In this document: piece by piece, positions 17,714-22,285 of the stretch
Position numbering within the stretch: position 1 is the first letter of the stretch
Layout of the letters: each line of letters starts with the position of its first letter
IMG/VR virus record: IMGVR_UViG_3300021400_000885
Coordinates: 1 to 64,000 of that record
Origin: a virus
Taxonomy: Duplodnaviria > Caudoviricetes
DNA: 64,000 nucleotides
Strand: one strand, 5' to 3'
The notes under the pieces: generated by a model
What the model saw: only the letters and a program-made list of their open reading frames with translations
What the model was told of the DNA's origin: nothing
Database searches by the model: none
Program-made: the position numbers and the translations under genes

Positions 17714-17787
17714 AGTGGCGAAGCTTAATGAGTATAAGCACCAGTCTTATAAACTGGAGATATTGGGTGCAATTCCCAAGGCCACTA
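17714..17787 (+). tRNA. tRNA-Ile(TAT)
   Basis: Anticodon arm ccagt-ctTATaa-actgg; atypical T-loop (GTGCAAT). Confidence 0.8.
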
Positions 17788-18876: not shown

Positions 18877-19344
18877 ATGGAAACAAAAATAAAAATAGAT
18901 GAATTCGCTAAAAGGGTAAAAATGGAGTTTGAGGGATTCAGGGAAATCTTAAAAAGAAAAGGAATTGACTTTCAACCAACTGAAATGGAGTGGAAAGACT
19001 TTACTGCAAGATTTTTATGGATTACAAAAGACTTTATCGAACTAAAAGATTCCATAAAAATATTAGAGCAAAAAGAGCCCTTTATACAAAAAACAAAAAT
19101 GGAAGAAGTTGAAATAACTGGTGAAGTAAAAATGACTGGCTGGGTAGCAAGAGATGCAAATGGATTACTTCTACTCCATTTCAGGAAACCAGTAAGGGAA
19201 GATGCCCTTCATATATTTACACCATATTGGTATTCAGGAAAATGGGGAGCAATCAAAATAAGAAACAAAAATGCATTCAAAGCCTTACGATGGGAAGACG
19301 AACCTGTAAAAGTAAAGGTAACAATAAGAGCGGAGGAAAAATAA
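18877..19344 (+). CDS. Hypothetical protein
   Basis: C-terminal WVARD...L.WEDEPVKV module of a type seen in Bacteroidales phages. Confidence 0.6.
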   Translation: METKIKIDEFAKRVKMEFEGFREILKRKGIDFQPTEMEWKDFTARFLWITKDFIELKDSIKILEQKEPFIQKTKMEEVEITGEVKMTGWVARDANGLLLLHFRKPVREDALHIFTPYWYSGKWGAIKIRNKNAFKALRWEDEPVKVKVTIRAEEK

Positions 19345-19448
19345 AATACAAACCAAGAAGACAATTTAAGATGAATTGCAACCCTCGAATATTCAGCACA
19401 CATTATTTTTATATAAAATAAAGAGCAATAAAATAAAAAGAATACAAT

Positions 19449-19688
19449 ATGGATAACAAACTAATAATTCTATTAGATAATTGCAAAGATGCAGTTATTA
19501 AAAAGGACATAGTTGCTCTTATAAGTTCTGCTAAATCTCTTGGTTTAGATGGCAATTCAAGGTCTCCATTATTAGAGTTCATCAGAAATCTTATAATAGA
19601 AGATATTAAGAACTTTATAGTTCAAAATAAAAAGGATTCCATTAGAATCAGTAGGAAGAATGCATATCATCAAGATACATTCGACTGA
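19449..19688 (+). CDS. Hypothetical protein
   Basis: ORF with A-rich leader. Confidence 0.5.
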   Translation: MDNKLIILLDNCKDAVIKKDIVALISSAKSLGLDGNSRSPLLEFIRNLIIEDIKNFIVQNKKDSIRISRKNAYHQDTFD

Positions 19689-19825
19689 TACTCTTTAAAG
19701 GATGGAGAGTTATTTAGAAATGGATTTAAAGTAACTTTCGATTCTATCAGTAAACTTTATATAGCATATAAAAGAATACATAATATTGATTAATTAACAA
19801 AATAAAACTATTACAACAAATGTTT

Positions 19826-20309
19826 AAAATATAAACCTCCCTAATTCGGTGAAAGCTAAGTAAATGTGGTGTAAACACTTGGTAAATTCCTCTCAGCTGC
19901 GTACTGGAGTAATCATGGATGAAGCCACATTTATATGTCAATACCGAGCCAATGTTATTAACAAGTATGGGATTTATGTATCCTCCTTATTACTAGTGTA
20001 TAAGCAGAGAAAACTTGTTATAGACAGTGTGTAGAGACGAGATACAGGAGGAACCTAAGTTGAAGTGGGTTATAGATGGAAATGAATTGTCTTTCCTTGT
20101 AACAGCCCAACTCATGAGACTTCAATATGGTTAAGATACAGTCCAGACCACAAATATTATAAAGACCCGAAATAATAGGAACATAAAAGGGATGTTACGG
20201 AATGACTGCAATCCTATTGTGCTGTAGGTCATTTTTAGTCTTTATAATAGTAGTGAAAACTATAGTGGTAAAAGTTGCCTTACTCTAAGGAAACTTAGAG
20301 ATATGGTAA
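19826..20309 (+). ncRNA. Group I intron-like ribozyme core without host gene or homing endonuclease
   Basis: P aattcggtgaaag, Q aataccgagc, R gtagagacga, S aagatacagtcc; P3 cctcc/ggagg, P4 tcggt/accga, P8 and P9 helices. Confidence 0.8.
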
Positions 20310-20356
20310 TAGAATGATTATTTTCATATTTTTAATTACTTTAAAACAGAATAGAT

Positions 20357-22285
20357 ATGACACAAGAAGATAAACAACTATTACTTAAAGACCTTTGTGC
20401 AAGAATTCCATATTACACTTTTGTGCAATTAAATCCCGGTGCTTACAATAAGCCAGAAACATGCATACTGACTGGGGTTCATGGAGAAAAAATTCATTTG
20501 AATGTTGATTCTGACCCTTTCAGAATTGACCATATAAAACCTTATCTCCGTTCAATGTCTTCCATGACTGAAGAAGAGTATATCCACTATTGTGAAACCC
20601 GTGAGTGGAAGTATGTTGATGATGACCACTATGAATATTTTGATACTCTCAAAACCTTTGATTGGCTTCTTGAACATCATTTTGACTATCGTGGCTTAAT
20701 TACTATGGATTTAGCTATTGAAGCAAAAGAAGGAATGTATAAATAATATAGATATTAGTTTTACTTGTTTAAATTTTTAAATTTAGTTAGTTATGGAAAA
20801 AATGTATAAAGTTTATAATATTGATATTTCATTTACGGAGTACAGTGTTGATGATATAATTGTTGGCGCAATAGATGAGGAAGATTTGGTTAAGCATCTT
20901 GAAGAAATTGCGTTGGATAATGACTTTAAAGATATAATTGAAAACATAGAGTTGATGAAATATTCATACGAACATCGTATAATTGAAGTACCTAATTGTT
21001 ACACTGATAAACCATATACTGTTCTTAGTAGAACTTTTTATTATGAATAAGATTTTGGCATAGAATGTACATGGCATAGTTATATAACGGAAAAAGAGAT
21101 ATGATTACAGAAGACTATTGCTCTTTTGAAACAGCAAAACTCTTGAAAGAAAAGGGGTTTGATGTATATGTGCGTTCTTTTTACGAGAAAGATAAATATA
21201 GGACAAAAGAAGAGTTTAGCACAAATAACGCACTGTGGAACTACAATATTTCAAGTTTTCGCTATTCAGCCCCAACTCTTCAAATGGCAATGAAATGGTT
21301 AAGGGAAGTGCAGCATTGTGTAATATGTATAACCCCACTGACATTTTATTGTGGAGAAATAGTTTCAAAATGGGGATATTGTATCTGGGCTGATGATAAT
21401 ACAGAAGTAGATGAAGAAAGTTCTCCAAGACTTGAATCTTACGAAGAAGCTTGTGAGTCTGCAATTAAGTATTGTCTTGAAAATTTAATTTAATATGAAA
21501 TGGTATCAGCTTAAATACAACTACAATGTTGAAGAATGGTGGCGTCATAATGGAATTTTTGACAGAGAACAAGCAAGTGGAATACCATATATGGCAGGTG
21601 ATAACTATCTCCAAAAGACTGATGAATGGTGGGAATCACTTTCAAATGAAGCAAAATTGGAGATTTATAATGAATTTTTTAACGAATGCTAATTTAATTT
21701 AATCATGGATTTGAATAAAATTAAATACAATCTTAAATGGTTTTTCATTAAAACAAATCTTTTCAAGCACCATTTTAATGTAGAAGGATTTGTTTATATG
21801 GATACATTTAGAAATCCTGTACATGATACTACTAAAGAAGTAAAATGGCTTGGAACTGTTGATGTTCATTGTCGTTACAAAGACATGAATAAAAAAGCTA
21901 TTGAAGCATTTGGTAATATGTACCCACGATATAGAGGATATATTAATTTATATTAAAAAGATTAATTATGTTGATAGCGTTAATTTTAACAGTTGGTTGT
22001 ATAGCCCTTCTCTTAATAGGAGCTGTAATTTCTTCTTGGGCAGGAATGGAAATACAAGATGATGGTCCAGATATCAAGAATATAATAATGTTTCTAGTTG
22101 GGACAGGAATACTTACTTTTGCTTGTTTCTGTATATATAAAGCAAGTAATTATTATCACGAAAAAGAAAGTCCTAAAACGGAAATTACCACTTCTGTTCC
22201 AGCTCAAATTGATACTATTATTACTATAAGAAATAGTGTTCCTGATACTGCTTATATCTACAAGTTTAATCTTACTGAAAAATAA
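20357..22285 (+). CDS. Run of six small accessory ORFs (20357-20746, 20793-21050, 21101-21493, 21495-21692, 21705-21956, 21968-22285)
   Basis: Tightly packed co-oriented ORFs; families (LLKDLCARIPY; MITEDYCSFETAKLLKEKGF) typical of Prevotella/Bacteroides phages; the last has 2 TM segments. Confidence 0.65.

Follow-up and report, generated by a model that had tools for sequence, protein, structure and literature searches.

A group I core in a phage genome, apparently derived from a large tRNA-intron family by loss of its exons and followed by a conserved 3′ hairpin

What is the catalytic core of a group I intron doing in a phage genome at a place where there is nothing for it to interrupt? The question is raised by a locus in the window (i.e., the whole stretch of 64,000 nucleotides analysed here, corresponding to the first 64 kb of the 103.9-kb virus record IMGVR_UViG_3300021400_000885, which is rated complete), where such a core is located ~1.4 kb downstream of a tRNA cluster, inside a 563-nt ORF-free gap between an ORF at 19449-19793 and another at 20357-20746. 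An original prediction, made from the letters alone, had described this element as an orphan and possibly circularly permuted group I intron without exons. The comparisons reported below indicate that the element is, as judged from its sequence, an exon-less derivative of a large family of phage tRNA introns of the group I IC3 type; the P3-P9 core is whole, including both tetraloop receptors and the L9 loop, and the 5′ exon, the guide, P1, P2, the 3′ exon and the terminal G have been lost.

The segment 19834-20272 is genuinely a catalytic core of the group I IC3 type and can be aligned block by block with ~50 introns located in the anticodon loops of phage tRNAs; the four conserved group I blocks, read by eye, are good copies and occur in the right order. 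Exact searches with two of the core blocks retrieved 13 and 49 IMG/VR stretches, many of them on phage contigs of 90-430 kb. In an alignment of 30 sequences (A1, consisting of the window and 29 relatives) the helices P2-P9 are 98.3% paired and 21 pairs have changed on both sides, while in a control in which the partners were slid by 1-3 columns pairing falls to 30-43%; in light of the exact block matches and of this difference the core helices cannot be attributed to chance. The P3-P9 helices that had been named beforehand are all present in the sequence and the core fold is backed by covariation across the family (Table 1).

Table 1. Positions in the window of the core, of its peripheral domains and of the neighbouring features
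Feature	Position	Strand	Basis or remark
P3 5′ strand and start of homology	19834..19841 (strand 19836-19840)	+	alignment A1; P3 covaries in 4/5 pairs
P4	19845-51 with 19942-48, spanning 19845..19948	+	alignment, covariation
P5 base, 11-nt-type tetraloop receptor	19855-60 with 19934-38	+	alignment, covariation
P5 extension	19861-19933 (stem 19861-69 with 19925-33)	+	95% identical to canonical tRNA-Leu intron L067
P6	19953-56 with 20023-26, in 19953..20026	+	100% paired across the family
P6a extension	19959-66 with 20013-20	+	100% paired across the family
R block: P7 5′ strand 20036-38, J7/3, P3 3′ strand 20047-51	20030..20051	+	alignment
P8, second tetraloop receptor	20054-59 with 20126-30, in 20054..20130	+	alignment, covariation
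P8 stem, with P8 extension	20060-66 with 20119-25, in 20054..20130	+	alignment, covariation
8-nt perfect palindrome	20111..20118	+	bulge just before the P8 3′ strand; alignment A1
S block: J8/7, P7 3′ strand 20141-43, P9 5′ strand 20147-51	20131..20151	+	exact 17-mer common to 13 IMG/VR stretches
P9 domain: P9a extension 20155-66 with 20238-49; P9 3′ strand 20265-69	20155..20269	+	alignment, covariation
P9b hairpin, GAAA L9 loop	20250-63	+	alignment, covariation
A-rich linker	20270..20273	+	20272 is the family terminal-G (omega) position, A here
15-pair hairpin	20274..20310	+	minimum-energy fold in all four homologues; conserved
Downstream gene, 129 aa, function unassigned	20357..20746	+	uninterrupted; full-length homologues in 29 viral loci

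P7 does consist of three pairs only (20036-38 with 20141-43), as had been noted, and its triplets are nearly invariant in the family, with a single unpaired cell out of 90; P3 (19836-40 with 20047-51) and P7 cross each other, giving rise to a pseudoknot. The R block has the same sequence in the splicing-type relatives L037, L038 and L063 and, more generally, no difference in the P7 triplets or in the R and S blocks sets the window apart from relatives whose flanks join into a tRNA, so that by its sequence the guanosine site appears intact. At the columns conserved in at least 90% of the family, P3-P9 of the window deviates only by a compensatory pair in P8 (20065 with 20120, G-C instead of the A-U of the family), a compensatory pair in P9a, the switch from one palindrome to another and the replacement of the omega G by A; omega aside, no unpaired core change is found at these columns. 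The fold of the whole region is mildly more stable than that of shuffled sequences, and not decisively so (z -2.4 and -1.4 on the + and - strand, respectively).

Nearly all relatives display the canonical order, namely a tRNA 5′ half ending in the anticodon loop, the P1 loop, the guide, P2, P3-P9, the terminal G and the tRNA 3′ half. The guide pairs with the anticodon loop, with a G.U involving U34 in the CUU-type hosts, P2 has 6-7 bp and a GAAA loop, and the terminal G lies two bases past the P9 strand. With the two flanks put together, ARAGORN recognises a complete tRNA in 25 of the 31 distinct units, the restored species being Leu(UAA), Leu(UAG), Arg(UCU), Ser(UGA), Lys(UUU), Met/Ile(CAU) and Pro(UGG). 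The tetraloop receptors of P5 and of P8 and the GAAA loop of L9 are conserved in the family, whose architecture is that of the IC3 introns of bacterial tRNAs. This family is overlooked by Rfam: no group I, ROOL or GOLLD match was obtained over window 19300-20800 either at the gathering score or at E up to 10, and searches of the whole genome yielded nothing at this place with RF00028 and no match anywhere with ROOL (RF03087). Since RF00028 scores none of the canonical family members either, this silence is uninformative and was rejected as an argument against a group I nature of the element.

Some family members depart from the canonical form. In L060, L073 and L047:1035-1554 (-) the tRNA 5′ half lies ~195-220 nt before the guide, P1 carrying a very large insertion, and L075:6221-6708 (+) is a tRNA-Leu(UAA) intron with matching exon halves, yet with A at the terminal-G position. 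Mismatched exon halves flank two further copies, L045:4517-4935 (-), hereafter L045a, with a tRNA-Ser 5′ half and a tRNA-Lys 3′ half, and L063:4159-4584 (-), with a tRNA-Arg 5′ half and a tRNA-Leu 3′ half; apparently, recombination between intron copies scrambles the tRNA genes of these phages. Tandem copies without evident tRNA exons occur at L172:1400-2792, the contig being 2.8 kb long and assigned to the bin of a Lachnospiraceae MAG; the first copy, divergent and ending in G, follows a tRNA-Gln and the second, ~110 nt later, begins at P3 without P1/P2. A different, small group I intron (RF00028, 39.7 bits, E 1e-6) is found at L049:4648-4853 (+), ~1.3 kb upstream of a family member.

What has the window copy lost with respect to this family? 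Homology begins exactly at 19834 and the sequence upstream is unrelated and A/U-rich (alignment A1); in the canonical relatives the guide, P2 and J2/3 directly precede the equivalent point. A covariance model of this guide-P2-J2/3 module of the family (R1), which gives 47 bits on the P2 of L039, detected no guide-P2 module upstream of the core nor elsewhere in the genome. The lack of P1/P2 upstream of P3, which had been proposed from inspection, is therefore confirmed by both the start of the homology and the genome search; a split intron, whose guide and P2 would be supplied from elsewhere in the genome, was considered and discarded, no such module having been found with R1. The omega column (949 of A1) is occupied by G in 27 of the 30 units and by A in the window, L039 and L075. 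The earlier proposal of G20274 as a candidate omega-G is not supported, the family position being 20272 and G20274 not being conserved in the relatives.

As to the surroundings, the two flanking ORFs are found whole in relatives without the RNA (L032, a close relative devoid of it entirely, and L003, the close relative examined in which no RNA precedes the homologue of the downstream gene), no tRNA halves were found flanking the core and no credible ORF exists within the 563-nt gap, so that the earlier statements that neither a gene nor a tRNA is interrupted and that no endonuclease gene is present hold true. A hidden ORF read with an altered genetic code was also ruled out, the gap being full of stops of all three kinds. 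Deprived of tRNA halves, guide, P1/P2 and terminal G alike, the window copy cannot self-splice.

The core is followed by a hairpin whose inner stem (20283-89 with 20294-300) closes a GAAA loop (20290-93) and whose outer helix contains a U.U mismatch (20280 with 20304) and a G20277.U20307 wobble. The P2-like hairpin that had been noticed at 20283-20300 is real and conserved. The search of relatives for the same arrangement revealed the module also behind related exon-less cores in two phages, L057 (170 kb, terminal repeats) and L039 (177 kb), and in the metagenome contig L126. In these four distinct sequences, all of shared ancestry, the hairpin shows 93% pairing, with both partners changed in 5 pairs, has z values of -4.2 to -6.9 and keeps the GAAA loop, the U.U mismatch and the G.U wobble in 4/4 cases. 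The 5′ boundary without P1/P2 is the same in L057 and in the second copy of L172 (whose 3′ end is lost at the end of the contig), and the boundaries are shared by different compact phage genomes despite the divergence of the peripheral domains. Three of the search patterns fixed the hairpin 5′ strand or the A-run preceding it, so that the A-run is partly an effect of ascertainment; in the pattern scans for this subfamily 28/31, 9/12 and 2/5 matches were due to chance and had no core, and the hairpin pattern had no match in bacterial genomes. Downstream of the module, L039, L057 and L126 have terminator-like hairpins and the window only a weak one; no U-run directly follows the hairpin in the window.

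The relationship of this hairpin to the canonical P2 is one of form. It has a GAAA loop and closing pairs resembling those of P2, and the P8 receptor is retained; furthermore, 13 nt separate the wobble G from the loop and 14 nt the loop from the wobble U, exactly as in the canonical stack of guide, P2 and exon (alignments A1, A3, A4), and the G.U has the polarity of the P1 splice-site pair. These features suggest that the hairpin may be a fused stand-in for P1 and P2. On the other hand, the covariance model yields no significant homology to the canonical P2 (E about 0.5 to 8): R1 gives 13 bits and E 0.48 on the window hairpin and E 7-8 in L039 and L057, scoring it as a generic GAAA hairpin. 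L039 is instructive in this respect, since it keeps the guide and P2, with an AAAA instead of a GAAA L2 loop and with A at omega, and by its sequence looks like an intermediate form. Because the old P1/P2 stand there alongside the new hairpin, the layout of the window can be read as the loss of a 5′ part accompanied by the gain of a 3′ hairpin, and not as a clean rotation. The alternative that the relatives might display the simple decay of a normal intron is borne out in part, the relatives being ordinary tRNA introns and L039 being intermediate-like.

The P5 extension shares 95% identity with that of the canonical intron L067, the P8 extension 82% with that of L084 and the P9 extension 93% with that of L045b. 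In the P9 extension six of the seven differences from the tRNA-Arg(UCU) intron L045b form three compensatory pairs, and at least one compensatory pair change distinguishes the P8 extension from that of its nearest relative. With modules so similar to three different canonical introns, the copy is, to judge from these alignments, a mosaic, and selection has acted on structure in the lineages from which the modules came. Consequently, the intactness of the core may have been borrowed by recombination rather than selected in place; in-genome gene conversion cannot account for it, since no second copy of the element exists in the genome.

The sequence is found in runs from animal-gut and rumen metagenomes and metatranscriptomes. 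Contigs from RNA libraries of two studies (X4, X5) are identical to the window over 19844-20064 and 20021-20150; these contigs, among which are other members of the family, are assembled and document presence in RNA libraries and not ends, strand or level. The RNA-run contigs as a whole span 19808-20311 and do not include the flanking genes; the uncovered flanks, the contig ends at 19844 and the depth carry no weight as evidence. In many related contigs the five core blocks are kept and the four peripheral hairpins are replaced by other sequence, and a fixed core with variable outer domains is the signature of a large family. One RNA contig of X5 runs through window 20198-20271, continues with 35 other bases and returns to 19834. 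These 35 bases are identical to positions +4 onward of the intron 5′ sequence common to L049 (tRNA-Arg(UCU)) and the chimeric L063, joined directly to the terminal G, and circles of the Azoarcus intron are known in which the terminal G is joined 3 or 5 nt inside the intron (PMC13168695). By this analogy, the contig looks like an ordinary L-3 circle of a canonical tRNA-Arg-type intron and, because it matches the L-3 circle shown for Azoarcus, suggests that the family is catalytically active in vivo, in the rumen.

Could the window element itself stem from a circle? Its DNA would then go back to an intron RNA circle that had been opened in J2/3, or its transcript would circularise so as to restore the P2-P3 order; core, short linker and P2-like hairpin indeed follow each other with the connectivity of a circularised intron, and both the Azoarcus circles and the X5 contig, which carries such a junction for a relative, provide precedents. 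Nevertheless, this origin is very improbable. The X5 junction contains the canonical guide and P2 of L049/L063 and not the module of the window, for whose locus no circle junction was seen among the RNA-run contigs; the window is devoid of the terminal G for the chemistry; L039 has the old P2 and the new hairpin at the same time; and no link to a reverse transcriptase is known. The ‘atat’ tetramer occurring both before P3 and after the hairpin, which had been taken as a sign that joining the two ends would restore the canonical order, is absent in L057 and hence not conserved, and was rejected as a circle or permutation scar, being a coincidence. Likewise, no exon located between splice sites and released as a circle, as in a permuted intron-exon arrangement, was found; the terminal G is missing and P9 is separated from the hairpin by no more than a 4-nt linker.

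A further element of the fold is the palindrome of the P8 bulge. A palindrome of 8-10 nt is present once per unit in 30/30 aligned units, in six sequence versions, and L057 and L060, two copies in one phage, have different palindromes. Because palindromicity is kept through sequence change, the site may well serve for RNA-RNA self-pairing, i.e., for the formation of a homodimer. The group II-derived HYER ribozymes are known to dimerise by palindromic pairing, and the review that describes them contains no report of group I intron dimerisation (PMC12990946).

We consider the best explanation of these findings to be that the exon-less derivative has been retained as a folded RNA standing on its own, with the 3′ hairpin in the role of P1 and P2, an explanation to which we give about an even chance of being correct; the balance is equally even as to whether the RNA is maintained for a function. 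That the function maintained would be self-cleavage after U20307 is only a tentative proposal. In this mechanism the GAAA loop of the hairpin would dock on the P8 receptor normally used by L2 and the base of the hairpin would offer its G.U wobble to the empty guanosine site, whereupon free guanosine or GTP would cut after U20307 (between 20307 and 20308), 49 nt before the start of the downstream gene. The cleavage would trim the 3′ trailer of the RNA itself and release the downstream message with an added 5′ G, in a single step and without exon ligation. Taken as a whole, the picture of a rearranged group I ribozyme, with P1/P2 fused in a 3′-tethered hairpin, that by one guanosine-dependent cut brings its 3′ end to maturity and adds a G, which might be a triphosphate G, to the 5′ end of the downstream message, perhaps acting as a homodimer by virtue of the palindrome, is slightly more doubtful than the cleavage alone. 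Since the arrangement recurs in other phages (L057, L039 and L126), the domesticated or rearranged ribozyme of the original prediction is a fair reading.

Opinion can be divided roughly evenly between a maintained rearranged ribozyme and the other readings, among which the strongest is that of an inert relic, although in absolute terms this too is rather unlikely. Recombination between the many intron copies of the tRNA arrays would have left behind a truncated, exon-less intron that is co-transcribed with the neighbouring genes and whose RNA persists only by virtue of its tight folding, the hairpin being a terminator or stabiliser. Scrambled copies are indeed common (L045a, L063), L172 has its tandem copies without evident exons, modules are swapped between copies, L032 does without the RNA, omega is lost in the window and the covariance model lends no support to a P2 homology of the hairpin; furthermore, the compensatory changes of the hairpin weigh less in favour of a maintained ribozyme insofar as a terminator or stabilising hairpin would show them too. 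A relic, however, would hardly be expected to have no unpaired change besides omega at the core columns conserved in at least 90% of the family, nor to keep its boundaries across distinct compact phage genomes in spite of diverged peripheral domains, and a plain terminator needs neither the GAAA loop nor the U.U and G.U found in 4/4 hairpins, and would not lack a U-run directly after it. Separated group I domains can reassemble in trans, and the RNA could accordingly be folded and not self-cleaving, either acting in trans on P1-like helices of host or competing-phage pre-tRNAs or serving as a decoy or a scaffold, which may be a homodimer held together by the P8 palindrome. An intact core whose guanosine site is left unoccupied by the absence of an omega-G and a covarying palindrome in 30/30 units would fit such a role; yet the element has no guide, no RNA partner came to light and the palindrome, common to the whole family, does not set the exon-less copies apart, so that this possibility appears quite improbable.

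Bacterial IC3 introns of tRNA anticodon loops have been catalogued (Williams 2020, bioRxiv 10.1101/2020.01.27.920355). With those of Azoarcus tRNA-Ile and of Anabaena and plastid tRNA-Leu(UAA) the window element shares the core blocks, the helix order and the two clamps between a GAAA loop and an 11-nt receptor (L2-P8 and L9-P5), and the canonical phage relatives are inserted at the same anticodon-loop positions, e.g., CUU/AAAA in tRNA-Leu(UAA). The window copy differs from them in having no exons, guide, P1/P2 and terminal G, and in having long P5, P6, P8 and P9 extensions together with the P8 palindrome. The likeness presumably extends to the Azoarcus sequence itself. The core blocks are near-identical to those of the canonical rumen-phage introns L067, L084 and L045b, which nonetheless possess the guide and P2, the omega G and, except for L084, joinable tRNA halves, whereas the window has none of these and has the additional 3′ hairpin.

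Natural group I ribozymes kept after the loss of their exons are few, the lariat-capping ribozyme (GIR1) being the classic case. The latter is a group I derivative that by one cut makes the 5′ end of the downstream mRNA (cited in PMC8637638). The resemblance would be functional only and consists of a non-splicing group I-derived core before an ORF and of the 5′-end role proposed here; the two differ in that GIR1 uses branching chemistry, an attack by free guanosine being proposed here, and in that the region has no Rfam match. Together with it, the HYER ribozymes and the circularly permuted group II introns (PMC12990946; PMC8637638) are the nearest precedents, being self-splicing introns that persist as ORF-less, exon-less or rearranged ribozymes, and HYER1 and HYER5 dimerise through a palindrome (PMC12990946); these are group II elements whose activity has been shown at the bench, whereas the RNA of the window is a group I element. 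Searches of open-access text turned up no account of phage group I ribozymes of the tRNA type without exons.

An untranslated leader, rather than the inside of a gene, is also the site of the allosteric group I ribozyme that Lee et al. reportedly described in 2010 in a 5′ UTR of Clostridioides difficile and whose processing is said to affect the downstream ORF; that ribozyme has a complete P1-P10, splices and is coupled to a c-di-GMP aptamer, unlike the element of the window. To our knowledge, ‘rearranged ribozyme’ designs have so far been built only in the laboratory. Should the element be active, it would represent a natural example of such designs and of a selfish intron turning into a viral RNA-processing tool; should the self-cleavage be real, a new job of a natural ribozyme would have evolved from phage tRNA introns. 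A very large family of phage tRNA introns, undetected by the standard catalogue, has given rise to non-splicing copies with an intact core and a new conserved tail hairpin, in different phage records and in a metagenome contig. Even if inert, these copies would illustrate the scrambling of phage tRNA arrays by recombination among introns; the covarying palindrome, present in every family member, points to RNA-RNA dimerisation.

A few further observations concern the locus and the remainder of the genome. A blastn search among deposited phages gave no match, and a scan for promoter and terminator consensus sequences found nothing exceeding shuffled controls and no strong terminator in the window. 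At 17714-17787 Rfam identifies a tRNA (52 bits; anticodon loop UAU, hence Ile) that is unreported by ARAGORN. The largest ORFs of the genome gain no length under any single codon reassignment, so that the genome otherwise looks standard-code. The upstream ORF contains an in-frame TGA at window 19686-19688, where Tyr is encoded in the homologue of L032 and TGG (Trp) is read in a DNA contig of run X1; given this standard-code look, the TGA is a nonsense allele or a read-through site.
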